A stretch of DNA of 64,000 bases from Balanoglossus misakiensis (lineage: Eukaryota > Animalia > Hemichordata). The position numbers and the translations under genes were made by a program. The DNA lies in the NCBI GenBank assembly GCA_040954595.2, contig CM082593.2, forward strand, positions 1,957,830 to 2,021,829, given 5' to 3'. How positions within the stretch are numbered: the stretch's first letter is position 1; each line of letters begins with the position of its first letter. The notes under the pieces were generated by a model, which had not been told where the DNA came from, did no database searches, and saw only the letters and a list, made by a program, of their open reading frames with translations. This document shows positions 3,101 to 53,000 of the stretch, piece after piece.

Positions 3101-4998
3101 GCTTAAAGCAAGGGCTGCAGATATACCAGAACTCAGTAAGTAATACAATTTATTCTTCGGGTACTTAATCTGAATAGCCTCAAGTTTGCTTGACGTTGAT
3201 TTTTGTTCTGCGTAGAAATTGTAGTTTACTGGTACTGGTTTAGCATAGGTTAAGAATGCAATAAATTCGGATGTTCGACCGTGTCTTGCAGTATCGTTGG
3301 AAGAGAGAGAGAAAGAAAAGTTAAATCCTCGACATCAGGGACAACCAATTTTGTATCCACGAGAAATCCAGCCGGCTTCTGATGTTTCATCACGTATGTT
3401 TTGCCGTTAAGTCATCTTATTCATTTCAACTTATATTAATTTCGTCTCTAAATGTGAAATAGTTTCATCCAGACTCGACTTGTGTCGCCATTGCAATTAG
3501 ATCTTTTCAATTGAGGCGGCGTTTACTAGTATTCGCGTCTGGCGAATCGTTTTACAAGGGTTGTTACATTTAGACGGATCGGATGAGTCATATTGGTGGC
3601 GCTGTTCGTTCACATTACCGGCACTCTTTATGATGTACACAACAAATCATATTTGTTTGTGTGTAGAAAACGTTTCAAAAATATTTCAGGAAAATTAATT
3701 AAAACAAAACATTTTTACTCTTCTTTTCTGGAAAGTCGAGTGGACAGAAGCGGAGATCCTGTGGTTCAAATATGCACTTCTGGAATTTGGAAAGCGATTT
3801 TCATACATTGAGCGATTTGTAAGTTATCCGCTGTGAACATTTATCAGAACTAGCTCTTGATGGCGCCATATACCACAGAAAGCTTTGCCGTTGAAAAATA
3901 TACCTGCTCTTCTGTGAATCGAAATTAAATGATATTTTCCTCAAATGACACTAACTGATTATTCGAAAGTATTAGTAGATTTTCTCCATTTTGACTGCAC
4001 ATTCATTGTTTACTTTTTTTCAGATGAAAACGAAAACTGCGGCCGAATGTGTAAAATTTTACTATCGCCTTAAGATGATTGATCCAGAGTTTTACTGGGA
4101 AGTGAAGTTAAACAATGATATATGGGTATGTGAAAGTATCTATTAAAATTGCACCTTTCCTCTGTTGAAAACAGCCTAGTTACTTCGTGTATAGGCCTAG
4201 CTGGTGTTATAAGTGAAGTGGGGTTTGAACAGATCTTTTCACGCCAAGCGGTGTCCTGTAGAGGACGCACAGACTTGAAAGAACAGTAGTGAAAATGGTG
4301 TGTCTTTATTATTTTGGTAGCCTTTACTGAGTGAACAAGAAAAGCGCACAAAACGAGACAGATGGAACTTGCTTGGTGATGAAGATTTTCAGAAGGTGAA
4401 GACGGAAATTCTGAGGGAACCCGACAAATTCTTCGCAGAACTCATTCAGAAATTACGCCGTGAGGCAGAGACGGTGGACAGGAGAAAACTTGTCGATATT
4501 CTGTCGAAAATTGACGAGGATCAAGAAGGAACGGAATCCCAATCTGAAGCCTCGCAAGAAACGACGGAGTCCGAAACGAACAAAATTCGCACGAGTGCAC
4601 GAAAGAGAAAACCAAAAGTGTGGGATGATGGGTATATTTTCAAAAAGAAAGCAAAGATTTGGAATACACCAAAGATTTCGGAAACTGAGGAGCACAAACA
4701 ACCACAAGACAATGTAAATATCAGTGAAGAGTCGGGAATATCTTGTAAGGGAAGTAAGAAACGGAGGGCAACATGGAAAGATGGCCGCCATAGCAACGAG
4801 ATGTACAGGCCCAGGAAGCAAATTCAAAATGGCGGCAATCGGACCAGTTCCAAGGCTGGCGTAAGAAAGACGTCGGCTGCAAATACGAATAAAGTTACTT
4901 CACGTGGTGACAGGAGTGGGAAGAGAAACCGATATGAGAAAGAGAAATCTGCAAACAAGAAAACAAAAGGAAACGCACCAAGAAAACCGAAGAAATAG
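151..4998 (+). CDS. ZNF541/TRERF1/MIDEAS-like C2H2 zinc-finger + SANT transcriptional regulator (multi-exon; 5' end uncertain)
   Basis: Phase-consistent exons ~151-584, 743-2188, 2296-2588, 2690-2903, 3080-3135, ~3292-3392, 3736-3818, 4024-4124, 4321-4998. Fingers [35 protein letters not shown]|[37 protein letters not shown] domain split over two exons: [26 protein letters not shown]|[23 protein letters not shown] near 5114. Confidence 0.7.
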
Positions 4999-5885: not shown

Positions 5886-6771
5886 ATGATGGCGGACGAT
5901 CCGCTGTCAAAATTACGGATCAAGAGACTAGAGGCCAGTGTAGAGCGTTTATTTTCATGTTATATACCTTGCATCGGTGCTATCAGCTATTCTACCTTTG
6001 GCGTCAACGTTGTACAGCCGAAAATCATTCGCAGGTTGGTATTTTAGACGTCATTTTACATCATTTGAGGACAACATCAGAATCGACCGTGTACGGCCCC
6101 AGGTCAAATCACCGGCCCATGTAAACAATCTCTCTGTCCTTTTAAATGGCCCATTCATTTTTTTCGGGCTTGTGTGGCCCTTCGCGTAAAGTCGCAGTTG
6201 TGAGGTGTAAAGCTATTTATATCGTCAGTTTAAATGAAGAAAGCTTTAAATTTCTACGTACAAATCGATAATTTACATGATGTGTTGGGCAATGGTATGC
6301 CTGGATCGTATCTGAAATAGAAAACGCCCCCCCCCCCCCCCCCCCCCATCTAAGAAGTCTGCACATGGCGTATTGGCACGTACCGCTGAGTTTATTTTGG
6401 ATCGCTCTCCAGATAGACTTGATATGTAACAGTATATATGACCTCTTTTTCTCCTTCTCCACAGCGTTTTCCCAAGACACTATTCAGGGATATCCAGCTG
6501 TCTATTCTTCAATGCACAGCTCGGAATAGGACTTTATATCTACAACAGACCCACTCTCAAGAAAGCTTCCACATCTCAGAGAATCAGATGGACTGTTTAC
6601 CTCACTGTTATGTTTAACTTTGGCTCGGTGCTCTTTTGGGCCGCAACGAAAAATCTGCTGCCAGAGAAGACATTTATTCGAGTCCTCTTTGCAATATCGT
6701 CAAGTATCTGTTGCTTGATTCTAGGGTGGCAGTACTTGGACTTTGTTGATACAGCTTGTGCCGAGTCTTAA
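5886..6771 (+). CDS. Small (151 aa) multi-pass membrane protein of unknown function, 2 coding exons; not in the ORF track
   Basis: Exon 5886-6034 (MMADDPLSKLRIKRLEASVERLFSCYIPCIGAISYSTFGVNVVQPKIIR, donor AG|GTTGGT, phase 2) joins in frame to exon 6465-6771 (polypyrimidine + CAG; VFPRHYSGISSCLFFNAQLGIGLYIYNRP..VMFNFGSVLFWAATKNLLP..QYLDFVDTACAES*). About 4 hydrophobic segments; AT-rich 3'UTR to AATAAA ~8650. Confidence 0.8.
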
Positions 6772-10085: not shown

Positions 10086-10886
10086 TCACGCCTTTGGTTT
10101 CTTTGGATTGGCGAGATGTTTAGAATTGTCGTAAATTACCAATAACACGCCACCCAAAAGGCCATGGATGATTGTACAGAGACATCCCTTGTAGAATCCC
10201 CGGATGCCTTCGTGGGTGTACATCTTCTTCCAACAGTCGATGGCGTTTCTGTACGCCATCTTCTGGCGACGCCCGCTCTGTACTATCATGCGGCATCGGA
10301 CAGTGTCAAATGGGTAAGCCATGAGACCAGCGGTCAGCGTTACTGAATGAGCAATCACCATGGTTACTGGCACACTTCTCTGGTACTTCTCCGGCAAGAA
10401 TGACTTGGCTGTGTCGTACAGACCGAAGTAGGCCCCACGGTAGACGATGATACCCAGTACGGACACGTTGAAGCCGCGGTAGAGGCCACGGATTCCGTCT
10501 GACCGGTAGATGTTGGCGATGCAGTTGCCGAAGCCACTGAACTCTCTGTTGATGCCGGCTTTGCCCACATCAACACCAAGTCGCGTACGGGCGAAATAAA
10601 TTGGATAGACGAAAACGAGGGAGGTTGCTCCGGCCGCACCACCAGCCGCCATATTACCCAAGAAAAACCGCCAGGGTGATCTCTTCTTGTCGACTCCTGC
10701 CAAGAATGTATTGAAGTTTTCTTTCAAGGCGAAATTCAGTGCTTGTGTCGGTAAGTGACCGACCACACTCACCAAGTTTCCACGCCAAAGTGAGCGAACT
10801 CCAAGTTCTCGAGTCGATCGGGTGAAACAGTCGACGATACCTTTGTACCGCGTTTCCCTCGTGATCCGAGGATGGGCATCTTGTGT
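10086..10886 (-). CDS. ADP/ATP translocase-like terminal exon E2b (divergent paralog, 266 aa)
   Basis: Acceptor tttcag|ACA CAA GAT (phase 0). Mitochondrial carrier motifs WRGN, PTQALNFA, GLYRGF, YPFDTVR; ANT signature degenerate (RCRMIV). Minus-strand AATAAA at 9867-9872. Confidence 0.85.
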   Translation of the reverse strand, partial: TQDAHPRITRETRYKGIVDCFTRSTRELGVRSLWRGNLVSVVGHLPTQALNFALKENFNTFLAGVDKKRSPWRFFLGNMAAGGAAGATSLVFVYPIYFARTRLGVDVGKAGINREFSGFGNCIANIYRSDGIRGLYRGFNVSVLGIIVYRGAYFGLYDTAKSFLPEKYQRSVPVTMVIAHSVTLTAGLMAYPFDTVRCRMIVQSGRRQKMAYRNAIDCWKKMYTHEGIRGFYKGCLCTIIHGLLGGVLLVIYDNSKHLANPKKPKA

Positions 10887-11352
10887 CTGAAATAAAGAAC
10901 GATAGACACCCTGAAACATCAGTTAAATCACAGACAAGATTTGTCTGTGGTTAAAATGTTGACGTAAAGCCGAAAAGGTACATCGGTAACATACGTTACA
11001 TAAAAAATCACCCAAACGCAATTTTGTACAAATTCTGCCGCTGTTTATTGTAAAACTCGAATTTGTTACAAATCTAGAGATCTACTACCCCTACCTCGTA
11101 CATAATCTCACAACAAATGTTGTTGATATACCCTGTATAAAAACATTCACCGTAAATGCCCTCCTATCACAAGCGCCATTCTCTGTGTAATGAAAAACGA
11201 ACATTACAAAGCTCTTCTTTTGAACTGTTAGCTATAGTGGTGATGTCGACAATGATTTTCTAAGTTTAACTTCTACATGCACGCTTGTGCAAAGTGTGTT
11301 AAACTCGATTAAGGAGCACACGAATTCTTTCCAAAACTACACAGAATCAAAA

Positions 11353-12156
11353 TCAGGTCTTGTGCATCTTCGGCTTGAGAAAATGCTGTATCTCGTCGTA
11401 AAGAACGAGCACTAAGGCGCTGCCAGTACCACGGATCATATTGGAGAACATGCCCTTATAGAGAGCTCTACCGCCCTCGTGAGAAACAATCTTCTTCAGG
11501 CAGTCGAACGAATTCTTATACATCGCTGTCTCCAGTCGTCCGCTCTGCATCATCATACGTCTTCGCACGGTGTCGTGTGGGTAGGCGATGACGCCAGCGA
11601 ACACTTCCACAACTTGGGCGATGAGAAATAAGATGAAGAAATTGTTCCGGTGTTTTTCAGGTATGTAGGACTTGGCCGTGTCATAGCAACCGAAATAGGC
11701 AGCACGGTAGACGAATATACCCTGTACGGAGACGTTGAAGCCACGGTAAAGCCCGCGAAGTCCGTCCGATCGGTAGATTTTGGCGATGCAGTGGCCGAGA
11801 CCGGAGAACTCTCTATCGACGGCGACTTTGCCAATATCAGCACCGAGTCGCGTTCTGGCGAAATCGAGAGGGTAGACGAAAAGGAGAGAGCTCGCCCCTG
11901 CAGCGCCACCAGCGAGCAGGTTACCGGAGAAGAACTTCCAGAAATGATCCTTCTTGTCAATCCCGGCCAAGAAGATCTCCTTGTAGGTATCCTTGAAGGC
12001 GAAACCGAGTGCTTGGGTGGGGAAGTATCTGACGACGTTCACCAGGTTTCCACGCCATAACGACAGAAACCCTTGTTCCCGCGTCACCCTGACAAAACAG
12101 TCGGTGATGCCATTGTACCGCATTTCCTTCGCGATCTGGTGGTGGGCATCTTGCAC
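11353..12156 (-). CDS. ANT: ADP/ATP translocase terminal exon E2a (canonical, 267 aa)
   Basis: Acceptor tttcag|GTG CAA GAT (phase 0). Motifs [19 protein letters not shown] and the ANT signature RRRMMM. Minus-strand AATAAA at 11044-11049. Confidence 0.93.
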
Positions 12157-13367
12157 CTGAAACAAAATGGGAAAGGTTGTCGATTATACTAGCATACATA
12201 CTCAACAGATTGTTTTTGGTTAATTCGACAGAATGAGACGTTTTATTCTGGCCACTAATCCACCAAGACCAAAGCAATGGTGGAGAGAATGAACAAAGGT
12301 ACCTTGTACTCGGGTGATATATATTTGGCCATCAATGACTCACCTTTAGTTGCATTGGTGCCAAAACATCATTTACAGTTCATGCATTTATGCCCCGTGG
12401 TCACCCTCCAAATGAGGCGATTTTCAGACCGACTTTTCGACGCGACTCGCGACAAATGATCATGGTGAACATTACTACAGGGAGTGAGGGTGCTCCTTTT
12501 TGGGATTCAGTGAAATTTGAGGTCTTCCCTACTTATGCGAACTTGCGTTACACTGACCAATCTTGTCGACAACGTACTTGACCAAACTTTCTATTTCTGA
12601 CCTATTTTTTTAAGTGACAAAAACAGCCGGGCACATTTCGTGTTATTTATAGGTCGTACACTGCCACACATTCCCCCAAATCGACTGATTGATTGATTGG
12701 CTTAATCATTGGGACTGAGAGGAAGAACGGTTCGTTTGGGTGTACATTTGGGGTTTTCGCGAATGTTCAGACATCTTGCATGTAATAGAATCGTGGGAAT
12801 GTCGCTTCTTGACCCCTTGGGCCGCCCCATCCCAGGCACCGACCCAGAACGCCTCGCTCCAAAAATGCGAACACAACAACCGAAAGTTTGCATTTACCTC
12901 CAAAAGGTCGACAGAGTTCGAAAGTGAATTCGTCGAGGGTCAAAACCTTTGCAGCGTAGGCTATCAGTAAAATCGGTTTTCTGTCAACCCGAAAAGAAAA
13001 CTGTCAACTTGGCATAATCGATGGCATAACAGCTATGCCTCTTATCAGTTGTCACATAACGGCCGCCACGTGTATATGCTAAGGAAAGTTCACAAATTTA
13101 GGAATCTTCCAAACATGACCCAGCCACGTAGCTGCAATACATTCCTTGTATTGGCGTCTTTACTTGGACAATTGTCCGAGATCTTTGGTATAGAAGATCC
13201 TCGGACCCCAGTCTGACCCCATACTTATCCAGAATACCAATGCGCATACATGCAGTAGGCGAACTCCGGGTCTCTAACAGGGATCCGAAGTCCCTCGCAT
13301 AGTCAAACATTCTCCGGCGCTTTTTTCGCTCCGTACAGTGCTAAAACTTGACAGGCGTACTCCTTAC

Positions 13368-13490
13368 CTGCAGAAGAAGCTTTACTCTCTCAATTGGTGC
13401 AACGACTGTTTTCGATACCGCCGCGGCAGTCCCGCCTGCGCACAGATCCAGGAGGAAACCCTGAACTGCGTCTTTTGTTATCTCCGGCAT
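13368..13490 (-). CDS. ANT: ADP/ATP translocase first coding exon E1b (41 aa)
   Basis: [41 protein letters not shown] followed by donor CAG|GTAAGG, phase 0. Confidence 0.9.
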
Positions 13491-14283
13491 TGTTCTCACT
13501 ACCGCTTCTCCAGTGAACGTAATATGGCGTACTTTGGACTTTTTTAAAACACTGCCATTACATAATAGCATACAGTAAGGTGCGTATGTCCGCAATGTTA
13601 TAATTTTCGCTTTTGTCATCTTACTCATGATCCATTGAATTGTTTTTTTTCGGCATTATGTTTTAGGCCAATCTCATTTTAGTGATGAGATGTATGATGT
13701 AGCTGTTCGTAGTATCATATCTATGGTAGCATCATGACCTACCATCCACAATGACTGCATGAAAAGGGGCGTGGCCGTCGCTTGATGTGATTACATAAGA
13801 ATGCACTGATCGCGGAAGGGGTTGCCATTAGAGGGCGCGCGCACATGGATGGGCGTGTCGTAGCTATAAAGCTTATGGATGTGTCATCATATCTGATAGT
13901 GGGTGTCCCAATATAAAGATATATTGACGGGAAAACATATTTGATTTGCTTGAAAGGGAAACGCCATGGCTTACACAGTGACAGAGCAAACACGATTGTC
14001 GACAATGTCGTGACCCGACGGCTTGCTGTCTGCCAACTGAGTGACACACGTCCCTTTTCAAATGCCACATCTCTATAAAATGTCTTTTGCAAAAGTAAAC
14101 GCTGGATCAGTCTGCAAGCTGTTACACATCACGACAAAAAGACGTCGATTTGTGATGTTTTGAGGTCATGGATGAATGATTTCTATCACATGCATGGTTC
14201 GTGACGGGGCCAGACCATGAGCTTTGGATGGAGTGACCTCGCTCACATCCCAATACGCCTACATTCGATGTACGCTTTCTCAC

Positions 14284-14400
14284 CTGAAGGAGAAGTTTAA
14301 CTCTCTCAATGGGTGCAACAACTGTTTTAGAGATGGCTGCAGCAGTTCCACCAGCTAACAGATCGAAAACGAATTCCTCGACTGTGTCTTTCGTCTTCAT
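14284..14400 (-). CDS. ANT: ADP/ATP translocase first coding exon E1a (39 aa)
   Basis: [39 protein letters not shown] followed by donor CAG|GTGAGA, phase 0. Confidence 0.9.
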
Positions 14401-15749
14401 CGCGTTACTTTGGTCAGAGAGATTCAGAAGAAAGACCTGGCTCTAAGGTCAAGGGTCAAATTACCAGATCTTCGGTGTGGCGACAAACGTTAACAGCGAA
14501 TTCAGCACTGGCGGCGAGGAGGGATTTCGCTTGCTTGGTTCGCTAGTATGACATTACTAAAAGAACAGAACGGTGGCCACTTGTAGTCTTTGTTCACGGG
14601 CTCCCTTCTACCCCTCGCAGCACAGCTAGCTCTGAAAACAGTCAGGTGACTGATATCACGTGACACACTCTTGCTGAAATCGAGCACTGTGATGAAATCA
14701 ACCACAGTCCCTTCATCCGAGGGACTAGTCCCAGGGGCGAGTTATTAAAACATAGACTATCTATAATTCATGAAAATTTTCCTTAACTAAAATATAGATC
14801 GCACAAATGTCCCGAACTCTTCTTCTCAAATTAATTAGGTTATTTGTTCCCAGACAAATTCCCAACTTGATAAGTCCGAAGTTGGCACATACATATCCAT
14901 AATAAAAGTCCCCCCTTATATACAAACATGTTACTTTTCCCGGTGGAAATAGATATTGAGTGGAACAATATTGCGCTTATTGAAATAAATAGTTTTGTTT
15001 TCCACGAACAACGCATTATTACTGAATTTATACTGATGATAACAGAGATTAAGTATAGCTCTCTTTCTGGCAGCGTCCGGTTTAGTTTTTAAACATGTTG
15101 AAGCCAGTTATGGCCATCTTTCACGTCACCAGTCAAAACGTGCGTATGAAATACGTGGGGCCGTCGTCAAAAGTGACGTCCACAACAAGATGACTTGTTG
15201 ACATAGAAACAAAAGTTGTCAACAGATTGAAAAGGGAAAAAAACGCAGGGCCTAGATCAAAAGATAATGTTTGGAGGATACAAATAACTGTGATCAGATC
15301 GGGTAAACGCGGATGATGAGACGTGGATTCTATTCACGCATTTCTTCCAGATGTGTGACGAGAAGGCAATCATTTTTTTGCGCAAATAAGTACACGTGCT
15401 AGTCTCTCCCTCTATCGTTTAAAATTGGAGAATAAATGTACGTGGCACTCCCATCTGCCAAAGCGGTTTCCTGTCTAGGGGTTGGTACATTGCCCTTTCT
15501 AAAGATCCCTCTACGCGCAAATACCGGCGTCGCTGGACGTCATTTTGCGTTATAACAGAATCTATGATTGGTCAATTCTGCTGACCGTAGCGAGAGAGCC
15601 TTATAAGAATAACTTCGCAGAATATTGTTACCAACGTCATGTAGACTTATCGTCAAGATTAAGGATGTGAAAAAAATAAGTTTATGATAAAAGGATGTTG
15701 GTATACAAGCCACAGCAAATAATAATTTTGTAAATATTTGGCACGACAG

Positions 15750-15800
15750 CCAATCAGAACTGACGTTATGACGTACCGGTATTTGTAGCATGACGTCAGA
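15750..15800 (+). promoter_or_regulatory. SAR1 proximal promoter: CCAAT plus three TGACGT (CRE/CREB3/XBP1-type) sites
   Basis: CCAAT at 15750; TGACGT at 15761 and 15769; perfect CRE TGACGTCA at 15791-15798. Lies just upstream of a likely non-coding first exon ending at donor GAG|GTAAGA (~15934). Confidence 0.5.
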
Positions 15801-16764
15801 TAAGGAAGCCATATTGTATAAAGTCTATCATCTGGCCGTGTGAGAACACACGAAATATAAGTTTATCGAAGAAGTTCCTGGATACTGTTTGGATCTTTCG
15901 GACGATTGGCTTCAAAGGAAAGTAGGTTAGTGAGGTAAGAATCAGCTTCACAAAGACGCACTTCCGACGATCATAAGTGCTGTGGATGCCCCAGAAATGC
16001 TATTAGCGTTACTTGGAATCGACACATCGGCATTCGTTTCAATGGAACACGATATTCACTGTTTTCGTATATACGTCTTGCCACAGAAACCTATCCGGTC
16101 CAGTCTTGGAATGGTACGCATATGAGTATAGGTTGAAGGATCTGTAAAACGCCCATGGGTACCTTTAACTAAAGTTGCTCTTTTCTCAAACGCCATGATT
16201 GACACGACACTATAGAATACTGAAATGAACACTGTTAGTGATATACACATAATAGCTTGGTGTAGTTCCACCCAACACACATAACTTTCTTCATCGAAAG
16301 TGATCGAATGTGGAATTCCATTTACAAACAAGCGTTATTCTGACGAAAGGATCCCTTTGGGTGTAATGGAAATGAATTACAGAAAGTATTGATACCACGT
16401 AATACAATTGTCAGTGAAATTGTATTCAAAGCTGTCCCACATACAATCTGTTTCCGTCGACGCAATGAATGGCCTTGGGATTTATCAAATTGGTCAGTGG
16501 TTGAGTTTGTGGTAAACAATTTCCTTGTCTGTATGGGATGTATACGTTATTGGGACATATTTTGTATCTATTTTGTGATTTGATGACCCACAAGCTCAGT
16601 AACTGATCAAAAGGGACGTGGGCTATACTCTAGGTCCATTTCGCCTATGGGTTAGATATAATATGTGTAATTTAATACTTTATACCAGTGAAGTTGAAAG
16701 AAGGTTTCGAGAGTAATCAAAGTATTTCATGTTCAGTTGGAATTAAATTCCCCAAATTTGCTTC

Positions 16765-16860
16765 TGTAAACTATTGAGAGAAAATTTTATTTTGTGGGAT
16801 GAAGTTTGGAATAGGGAAATGAATATCCCACGAGATATAATTTTCTCTCAATAGTTTACA
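16765..16860. repeat. Inverted repeat / MITE-like hairpin in SAR1 intron 1
   Basis: 36-bp arms TGTAAACTATTGAGAGAAAATT..GTGGGAT / ATCCCAC..AATTTTCTCTCAATAGTTTACA with 3 mismatches. Confidence 0.75.
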
Positions 16861-50078: not shown

Positions 50079-53000
50079 GTTGTGTACAGCAACTGAAAAT
50101 GGCTAACAGAAGTCAAAGTCATGGTGCATCCCAGATATTCCAGAAAGAGCCAGAAACATGACCAGCCCGTGACAGGATAAAAATACCTACTGGATACTCC
50201 AAACTCATAATTAAAGTTCTCCCGGTCCACACTGTATTTGAGCTCTCTGTCGAGTGCCCCCAAACAAGGTGAAGCCTGAAGTGAAGGCGTTCAAAATGCT
50301 TCATGGTACCTGTCGTAAATTCCCTGCTAATGCAACGACGATAGCATTTATCCGCTAGTTAGCTGTCAGAACTGGTTAATGGAGATGGTTACCATAATTA
50401 CCGAGTGTCGTAGTTTACGGCGTTGCTAGTGTTACCATGGTATTGGCAGCTAATTCGAGGACTTCCGGGATGCATCCGAGCACGGTACCAAAAACAGTCA
50501 ATTTGGGCTAGCATCAGATTCAGAATGAGGCTAAATGCCACGACATTGACACTAGCATCAGAATCGGCATCATATTCATCGGATACATAACTCGATCGGC
50601 AAATTACGTGTAATGAGAGTTTTTATGGCTTTACCTCTATATAAAAAGTACTTTTTTACTTAATTTGTATATTATTTATGCTAATGATATAATTTTTGAG
50701 CGTATAACTTTGTTAAATGATAAATGATCAGACGGCATATTGATAATTTCAACTTGGTATGATTGGTACGGTCAAAAATCAAACTCCAATTTTCCAGGAC
50801 TTAACATTTCCAGGAGAAAATTCCTCATTTCCTGGATTTCTGGTTGTTCTTACTGGTCTAAACTGCGACATTTCTCTTTGTTGACACACTCAACTTGCAA
50901 CCAAATCATTTTTTGTTCAAAGTAAAAATTTATTCAACTGCATAAAAGCTGAGCCACAGAGTTTCCAAGTTTTCTCAGAGACAGTACAAATAAAAAAAAA
51001 ATGCTATATAACAATCAACAAATTAAAAAAAAATTAAATTCATTAAATTGAAAAGGACATGATGATACTAATATACTGAATCCAGAATTTGACAGTTAAC
51101 AATTTTTTTATCTCCCCTCGAAATGGGACAGTTGGATTGAAATAGTTCATTTTGGAACACAGTGACCAAACAAACATTATTTAAGAACGTGTATATAATG
51201 AATCACAGTCTCTCCACACAGACTGTGAGTGAATGGAGTCTAAAAAAACATTTAATACATATTTGCATTTGACAAAACTTCCTTTGGACGTTGCTGGTAT
51301 TTGTCACACAAAATTAAGTAGTATCAGAAAGAAACATTCTTTTCTTCATTAAAACTGGTAAGTTGATCAAAGACATATTTGAGTTTGACTCTAATTTTAT
51401 AAATGGTTCATTTTATTATGGCCTTCTTGAAGAATGTTACAAGTTAAGATATATATTGATTTGGCATAATCAGAAAATGAAATTCTTTTTCATTAATCTA
51501 TTTCTGAGAGAGTGAAAGCTTGTTTCGTAAGGTGTTTTCCAAGTAAAAAAGAGCACAGAATTTGACAGACCATGATAACACTGCCAATAACAAGTATTGT
51601 TAAATTTTGCAAGTTGTATATGGAAGATGCAAGCACCTTATGCCTCTGCTTTCAGGGGGAACTAACATAAGGCGTTTCCACACACAAAGTTACCACAAGA
51701 TAAACTTTGAAGAAAACAACAACAGCTTTAAGTATTGGTTGTATGGCTCTGGTGTGACTTTTAACACAGCGATGACAGTCAGCGGTCTCCCATCAAGGTG
51801 GTTGACATTTTCCTCTTTATATGTCTTCATATAATTATGTGCATTTTATTCTGTGAATTTTTAATTTAACAACACAATGTTGACAGCCACTATGGAAGTT
51901 AATAATTGTGGCACTTTTGAGGCTCGATGACAACACAAACACAAAAATTACAATGTCAACCTTGTTGACTGAACTGCTGTTAAACTATTAAACAGTACAT
52001 TTTTAAGCACGATTTCAGGTTATACAATCTCAGCTTGAAAAACCACAAGGCTACGCGAGAGTGCATCAGTTTTGATGGGGCGGCCATCTTGGATCACTGT
52101 GACCCTTCAACCTTGAAATTTGCATACATTATCAGTTTCTGAACATTCACATCGAAGTGCTCGACACCCATCACTTGATTGGAAGACAGTCTGTCTACTG
52201 AAGAGACAATAATATTATCTTTTGCGGAACAGTAACACAGAAATCAAAGAGTAGAAAACTTGCCTCAAACATGGAATCGGTTTTCATTTGGAATATAACA
52301 CATCAAATACAATAACTTTGCGATAATTTTTTAACTTATAATAAGTCTTTAGAGAAAAATTTCAGATCACTCAATGCATGATTTGTGGTTGAATAACGAG
52401 GTTAAATTTGTCAACTGCCCTGGACCTGCTGTTTAGTGCTAGAGAATGTACCCCTAATCTGTAGGTCATTACCACAACAAGCAAGTCAAAGTGGTGTCAA
52501 AGCATGTGGTTACCACTAGAGGATCTAGTACCAGTAGGGTTGCATTGAATATTAAGTCTCATGGCAGAATTCGACCTTAACTAAACACTCTTCATAAATC
52601 AATTTATAAAACAAATATTTCATTACTTAGGCAATGCTTTTAAGCTTTCTGGCTGGCTAATGTAAGGGACAAAAATTGATAATCAACTAGTGAGACCAAT
52701 TATCTGATCGGTAACTTCTGAATACTATAGCCAAAATCTGCTCTTTGGTCACTTCTCTCATAAATTACACTCTCCATTTTGATTGGCTGAATCAAGCATA
52801 TCTACTGATCCCACCATGAACACTGATTGGTCAAAATCATTTTAATCACCGGCCACATAACTGACCTGAATTTTAACTCTGATTGGTTGATTTTCACGAT
52901 TTGAATTTGGAACTTGAACTCTGATCAGTCAGTTTGAATACCACTCAATAACGTCAGCAAAGAGCTGTTAAAAACTTGGATGAATTTTAGATCTCTAAAC

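Follow-up and report, generated by a model that had tools for sequence, protein, structure and literature searches.

An ADP/ATP carrier locus of the acorn worm Balanoglossus misakiensis in which two homologous first exons stand before two homologous last exons

Introduction

The Drosophila ADP/ATP carrier (ANT) genes sesB and Ant2 share a 5′ untranslated region exon; UGT1A is a further system of duplicated homologous first exons, and Anopheles GSTd1 is a case of duplicated terminal exons, the primary source of which was not found in our literature search. In Drosophila, sesB and Ant2 are tandem ANT paralogues in one transcription unit with a common promoter and alternative splicing, Ant2 being used mainly in testis (PMC7504413, PMC4351007). 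Homologous first exons duplicated in one phase and chosen by promoter are described for Drosophila silver, the 5′ cassettes of chelicerate sDscam and the clustered protocadherins (PMC3228551, PMC4835542), and homologous last exons with their own acceptor, stop and poly(A) signal for human capping protein beta (PMC3228551), so that homologous first exons and homologous last exons have each been described (PMC3228551, PMC9013439). A two-exon gene in which both exons are duplicated and none is constant was not found in a literature search that had subscription papers mostly beyond its reach, nor did that search find anything on acorn-worm ANTs. Here we analyse an ANT locus in a window of 64,000 nucleotides (nt) of B. 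misakiensis (GCA_040954595.2, contig CM082593.2, positions 1,957,830 to 2,021,829 of the forward strand; coordinates below are those of the window). A reading made earlier from the letters alone (the sequence-only reading) had set this locus apart from sesB and Ant2, which have a common promoter but no swappable coding halves; in the literature their two coding regions stand whole and in series (PMC7504413, PMC4351007).

Results

Exon layout of the locus

Four ANT exons lie in the order E1a, E1b, E2a, E2b (Table 1), and on re-check the order, strand and coordinates given by the sequence-only reading were found to be exact. Both first exons have their own ATG, end in ...KLLLQ and run into a GT donor in phase 0 (GTGAGA for E1a and GTAAGG for E1b, each scoring 8/9 against the donor consensus), and both terminal exons begin after TTTCAG at the homologous codon, also in phase 0, and carry their own stop and AATAAA. 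All four exons match PF00153, and all four E1-E2 joins are open, giving products of 305-308 amino acids with a single terminal stop each. E1a and E1b are homologous first exons, each with an ATG and a same-phase donor, as alternative first exons are expected to be, and E2a and E2b each have the acceptor, stop and poly(A) signal of an alternative last exon. Identity between E1a and E1b is 79.5% at the amino acid and 75% at the nucleotide level, and between E2a and E2b 58.6% and 68%, respectively. No further intact ANT exon was found in the window by tblastn. The arrangement is not an ordinary E1-E2-E1-E2 tandem, for no intact E1 lies between E2a and E2b and no E2 between E1a and E1b. The stronger statement that nothing E1-like separates the terminal exons is right for an intact exon but not for the weak 8-codon match that we found there (gap match in Table 1). 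It was also correctly noted that a full six-helix product of E2b requires a splice across E2a. The proposal of up to four carriers is not supported, because in both E2b products the RRRMMM signature is gone and three of the four cavity charges are missing. The layout of two first exons followed by two last exons is real.

Table 1. Features of the ANT locus, in window coordinates
Feature	Position	Strand	Content
E1a, first coding exon	14400-14284	minus	39 amino acids, ATG start, helix 1 with K22 and the first Px[DE]xx[KR] motif
E1b, the other first coding exon	13490-13368	minus	41 amino acids, same content as E1a
Two CCAAT boxes and TATAAAT	12712-12645	minus	resembles a promoter by motif match alone; upstream of E1c
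E1c, likely decayed third first exon	12472-12344	minus	ATG, 43 codons, two in-frame TGA
E2a, terminal exon	12156-11353	minus	helices 2-6; RRRMMM and R79, D134, R235, R279 intact
Gap match, resembling the end of exon 1 weakly over 8 codons	11334-11311	minus	18 nt past the E2a stop, lacks a good donor, may be chance
AATAAA of E2a	11049-11044	minus	158 nt upstream of the E2b acceptor
Hairpin	10960-10915	minus	over the likely E2b branch-point region, covers ATG 10919
E2b, terminal exon	10886-10086	minus	helices 2-6; open but degenerate
AATAAA of E2b	9872-9867	minus	beyond the range quoted in the sequence-only reading

The degenerate terminal exon E2b

Relative to bovine AAC1 (bovine numbering, alignment to 1okc), E2b carries R79G, D134Y, R235C, N276T and R279H and has lost K95, and its signature is RCRMIV instead of RRRMMM. 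Positions R79, D134, R235, N276 and R279 are each at least 99% conserved in 171 full-length homologues that were used as background throughout (173 of 194 matches had 285-315 amino acids, and the Ptychodera flava proteins XP_070544422 and XP_070544429 were excluded). Neither the cavity residues nor the complete matrix salt-bridge network is kept. It may be noted that the RRRMMM signature has been termed critical (PMC4351007), that K22, R79 and R279 are proposed contacts of the substrate phosphates (PMC7458400), and that transport is abolished by R79A and by mutation of the yeast counterpart of R235, but not by R279A alone (PMC8839422). Since key transport residues are lost, the E2b products are likely not ADP/ATP exchangers. 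Of 150 columns that are at least 95% conserved in these homologues, 43 are changed in E2b and 38 in XP_070544429; as 26 of the 43 are also changed in XP_070544429, the degeneration is old. An in-frame ATG lies 33 nt upstream of E2b (10919), with a second in-frame AG at 10910, and because of this ATG a product of E2b devoid of helix 1 would need no splicing. The 131-nt region with the hairpin before E2b gave z = -3.5, with 1 of 200 shuffles equally stable, the region having been picked after the repeat was seen.

The frame of E2b is open across 266 codons with its 4 CGA codons intact, and its acceptor is kept at the ancestral codon together with its own AATAAA. Under simulated neutral decay the share of runs with E2b still open was 56% at 0.02 substitutions per site, 25% at 0.05, 8% at 0.1 and <1% at 0.2, and it was lower with indels. 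Between E2a and E2b the synonymous divergence (dS) is ~1.0 and the ratio of nonsynonymous to synonymous divergence (dN/dS) 0.31. When E1b was used as a stand-in for the ancestor of E1c, the candidate third first exon discussed below, two stops in exon 1 with an open E2b were reached in at most ~0.2% of runs, whichever shared age was tried, so E2b would have outlived E1c if E1c was its old partner. The sequence evidence is good that a degenerate paralogue has been deprived of its first exon and is itself still intact.

The first exons and the intact terminal exon E2a

E1a and E1b differ with dS ~1.2 and dN/dS ~0.11 (Nei-Gojobori, 39 codons, wide interval), and 20 of their 29 nucleotide differences fall at third codon positions as against 9 at first or second positions. 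This pattern shows purifying selection between the two: both were long kept by selection. Of 20 exon-1 columns that are at least 95% conserved in the homologues, none is changed in E1a or in E1b, whereas exon 1 of XP_070544429 is changed in 8 (2 of them gaps, and K22Q included; Fisher p 0.002). Because both are pristine beside this degenerate exon 1, neither E1 looks dedicated to E2b, and their state speaks for sharing rather than for pairs fixed long ago. No branch of the exon-1 tree is supported, and no E1-E2 pairing is readable from it. On scanning 12,456 GT/GC sites for an intact exon resembling exon 1 of XP_070544429, only E1a and E1b were recovered; a match at 52761 resembling the degenerate N-terminus was rejected as its frame ends after 24 codons. 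Also, an identical 9-mer at 14559 and 12477 spans acceptor-like sites upstream of E1a and E1c (2 of its 3 copies in the window); it is likely a chance occurrence, and would fit a shared leader exon.

With E1a or E1b, E2a makes a protein that has three Mito_carr repeats and as many Px[DE]xx[KR] motifs, in which E29/K32, D134/R137 and D231/R234, the RRRMMM signature and the cavity residues K22, R79, R235 and R279 are all present. Against bovine AAC1 (PDB 1okc) E2a matches with E 9e-112, and E2b with E 3e-93. The best-matching relative of E2a is P. flava XP_070544422 (77% identical), with which it groups at support 99/98 in an exon-2 tree of 23 parts (21 picked from the 194 matches, plus E2a and E2b) and at 100/98 in a 10-row tree; 11 derived residues are shared. 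By tree and residues alike, E2a is shown to be the orthologue of XP_070544422. The number of highly conserved columns changed is 21 of 150 in E2a and 14 of 150 in XP_070544422, and the single key-site change of E2a, N87G, is common to both. An extra AATAAA at 12247 (minus strand), 90 nt before the E2a acceptor, is a possible intronic poly(A) signal or a chance occurrence.

Relatives in Ptychodera flava

The best matches of the window carriers are acorn-worm proteins, internally duplicated vertebrate models aside. In P. flava, XP_070544420, XP_070544422 and XP_070544429 lie on a single 35.9-Mb sequence and a fourth close ANT elsewhere. The window and P. flava carriers form an acorn-worm-only clade (99/100), and another acorn-worm ANT groups with echinoderms. 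Judged by these relationships, the DNA likely comes from an acorn worm close to Ptychodera. E2b groups with XP_070544429 (94/93 in the 23-part tree and 92/92 in the 10-row tree), a grouping that joins two long branches, and shares 14 derived residues with it along the whole exon versus 1 shared with E2a only. XP_070544429 is likely the orthologue of E2b and is like it in having RCRM and in the loss of R79 and D134. That E2a and E2b are recent sisters is disfavoured (approximately unbiased test of the clade, p-AU 0.04; 1 shared derived residue). XP_070544429 is without R79, D134 and R235, yet its RefSeq name is ADP/ATP translocase; judged by these residues, it and E2b are candidates for a pseudo-carrier or a re-specified carrier. 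Unlike our locus, P. flava has a separate exon 1 for every one of these paralogues, and in XP_070544429 this exon is itself degenerate; the window is without an exon 2 of the XP_070544420 type and without an intact degenerate exon 1. A one-residue insertion after QSGR is common to E2a and E2b and absent from the P. flava orthologues, and 8 residues are common to E2a, E2b and XP_070544422; both may reflect gene conversion between E2a and E2b. No closer degenerate orthologue was found in the best 150 matches of a 50%-representative search with a profile of E2b and XP_070544429. A metagenome scan for close relatives with DNA context returned 80 loci with a best identity of 55%, and a short-fragment search with residues 1-110 of XP_070544429 matched 1 of 5 candidates, which was unrelated. 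ANT terms were absent from the supplements of two hemichordate-related papers, PMC12768270 (2 files) and PMC11175523 (8 files).

E1c, a candidate decayed first exon

E1c had been overlooked in the sequence-only reading. Its signature motif is broken, and its phase-0 donor scores 9/9, as does no other on the minus strand of the window. Scored for likeness to exon 1 of XP_070544429 with the donor as anchor, E1c ranks 1 of 295 donor-like sites; it ranks 1-2 in 16 of 16 scoring schemes, and 2-8 of 1185 when weaker donors are admitted. When 168 other exon-1 sequences serve as reference, the median rank of E1c is 18. Shuffling gave p 0.0006-0.0014, values that are optimistic because the exon came to attention following an earlier inspection against this reference. 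The gap match covers the part of exon 1 that is absent from E1c, and 9 of 252 control tiles score equally high; the idea that E1c and the gap match are two pieces of one exon 1 separated by E2a has p 0.046, which is weaker than the donor-anchored reading, and counts as a lead only. We consider it fairly probable, from these likenesses, that E1c is a true relic of a first exon, and as such it points to a three-paralogue history. Whichever reading of E1c holds, E2b's own first exon is, by what the window contains, gone or broken. Also, an acceptor at 12474 and the perfect donor of E1c delimit a 131-nt exon, which when joined to an E1 would begin with the codon TAA, so that 12474-12344 could act as a poison (stop-bearing) cassette exon.

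Use of the four junctions

In the explanation that we prefer, both E1s join E2a, and E2b, having lost its own first exon through decay of E1c, survives by borrowing E1a and/or E1b; the exons are compatible with this, and we regard it as evenly poised between right and wrong. A similar middling standing is given to the use of at least three of the four junctions, and the use of all four looks doubtful. Transcripts would start at E1a or E1b from their own promoters, or would enter through a shared upstream leader exon, for which an acceptor at 14556 and a donor-like site at 15777 near the neighbouring promoter are possible boundaries. By default they would be spliced to E2a and cleaved after 11049, giving two working exchangers different in ~8 N-terminal residues. 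If the E2a acceptor and poly(A) site are skipped, E2b, 158 nt beyond the AATAAA of E2a, would be reached, the choice between E2a and E2b being one of alternative last-exon processing with the hairpin before the E2b acceptor as a possible gate. The E2b products would then be carriers that fold but are transport-dead or re-specified, and their role would be structural or regulatory; expression may be limited to certain tissues, perhaps the germline, for which the analogy with Ant2 and ANT4 is the only ground. The CpG observed/expected ratio is ~1.0 at the ANT locus versus 0.62 for the window, and a value near 1.0 is expected of an unmethylated, often tissue-restricted invertebrate gene. Each of the three intervals holds one copy of a palindromic 8-mer (3 of its 4 copies in the window), which was rejected as a signal because some palindromic 8-mer occurs three times in 16 of 94 control tiles.

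Several points weigh against this explanation. Junction use is read from genomic sequence alone, and in the clusters of the three P. flava proteins no cross-joined form is present, which suggests fixed pairs there. In normal genes, too, conservation is highest in exon 1 (in XP_070544422, 0/20 columns changed in exon 1 and 14/150 in exon 2), and a recently re-paired E1 would look pristine as well. The most altered parts of E2b are helices 2 (10/23) and 6 (8/15), which flank helix 1 and may fit a canonical helix 1 poorly. The E2a/E2b dN/dS is a mean over the two branches and gives no date for selection on E2b, and E2b may have died within the last few percent of neutral divergence. E1c is not significant at the DNA level (108 of 295; no nhmmer match among those listed) and, besides having been noticed with the reference used to score it, has an unanchored score of p 0.34; its perfect donor may mean that it is still spliced, as a short-ORF (open reading frame) first exon or a stop-bearing cassette. 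Long-range RNA pairing of the gap with the two upstream introns, which would loop out E2a, did not stand out from the controls, of which 3 of 22 and 10 of 22 were as strong.

Of the alternatives, an assembly error with a true order E1-E2-E1-E2 is very improbable. The layout is known from one assembly, but there is no N in it, the exons are 25-32% different in DNA, and such an error demands the swap of a 1-kb block inside 5 kb. Among the repeats listed for 2-19 kb, those longer than 40 nt are the exon pairs themselves only, and since these pairs diverge strongly and exceed all other repeats, haplotype mixing or repeat collapse is unlikely. Two fixed overlapping same-strand genes, with the promoter dictating the last exon, could be interleaved (E1a-E2a and E1b-E2b) or nested (E1a-E2b around E1b-E2a). 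The alike dS of the two pairs (~1.2 for the E1s, ~1.0 for the E2s) and the fixed pairs of the P. flava models speak for such genes, as does the tendency of upstream starts to favour upstream ends in mammals, mainly in long genes (bioRxiv 10.1101/2024.01.05.574404), an ordinal coupling which would favour E1a-E2a and E1b-E2b. But if either E1 had long been the dedicated partner of E2b, it should show drift like that of exon 1 of XP_070544429, which neither E1 does, and the exon-1 tree yields no pairing. We take fixed genes of this kind to be quite unlikely.

It is also unlikely that E2b is an orphan, either recently silenced or making a helix-1-less protein from ATG 12355 (the last of E1c) or ATG 10919, with two first exons and E2a as the only working gene. 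The lost transport residues and the position of E2b behind the E2a poly(A) signal and the hairpin are what such an orphan would show, the perfect donor of E1c and its CCAAT and TATA motifs look as if in use, and an open frame can persist to ~0.02-0.05 substitutions per site. Against this, the degenerate state is old and common to P. flava (26/43 columns), which argues for kept function and not decay; seven ATGs lie between the TATA and ATG 12355, the 11 residues from ATG 10919 cannot make a helix 1, and catching a gene so soon after its death is unlikely. An extended version of our preferred borrowing scheme, in which an ancestral acorn-worm cluster had three first and three last exons and no constant exon, as would P. 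flava likewise, and in which all four junctions here serve a switch of one 4-kb locus between working exchangers and transport-dead carriers with a helix 1 in common, seems to us improbable on the present sequences.

Neighbourhood of the locus

The neighbours of the ANT locus are an Arf-family gene on the plus strand, which we take from its sequence to be Sar1-like, DBC1, CFAP96, Menorin, BICC1 and a C2H2 zinc finger. The region 15400-15950, between the ANT locus and the Sar1-like gene, which stand head to head, is CpG-rich with CRE-like (cAMP response element) and CCAAT-like motifs and is a possible bidirectional promoter. At 16765-16860 lies a 36-nt inverted repeat, 92% complementary with a 24-nt spacer, possibly a small mobile-element remnant. 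On the plus strand, 103-2674 holds a C2H2 zinc-finger ORF with a 501-amino-acid low-complexity ORF, 4321-4998 a lysine-rich ORF of 225 amino acids and 6442-6771 a short hydrophobic ORF with no clear Pfam match. The CpG ratio is near 0.9 across 1-6 kb of the window.

Discussion

The layout is unusual, and the mechanism that we infer for it would combine two known ones. If the junctions are real, this would be a two-exon gene with neither exon constant, a compact natural test of the coupling of promoter, splicing and poly(A) choice, and a paralogue rescued by the capture of a neighbour's exon after the loss of its own. Also, an ANT-like protein conserved in acorn worms, which has lost its transport residues yet been kept, bears on transport-independent roles of ANTs.

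Compared with known systems, sesB and Ant2 have whole coding regions, whereas at our locus these are split into interleaved halves that would be used in common. Duplicated first-exon systems have constant downstream exons, and duplicated terminal-exon systems a constant upstream exon; at this locus no downstream exon would be constant and the upstream exon is duplicated too. Unlike the alternatives of known terminal-exon systems, the terminal exon E2b encodes five of the six helices of a likely transport-dead protein, which differs from bovine AAC1 (PDB 1okc) in being without R79, D134, R235, N276 and R279.

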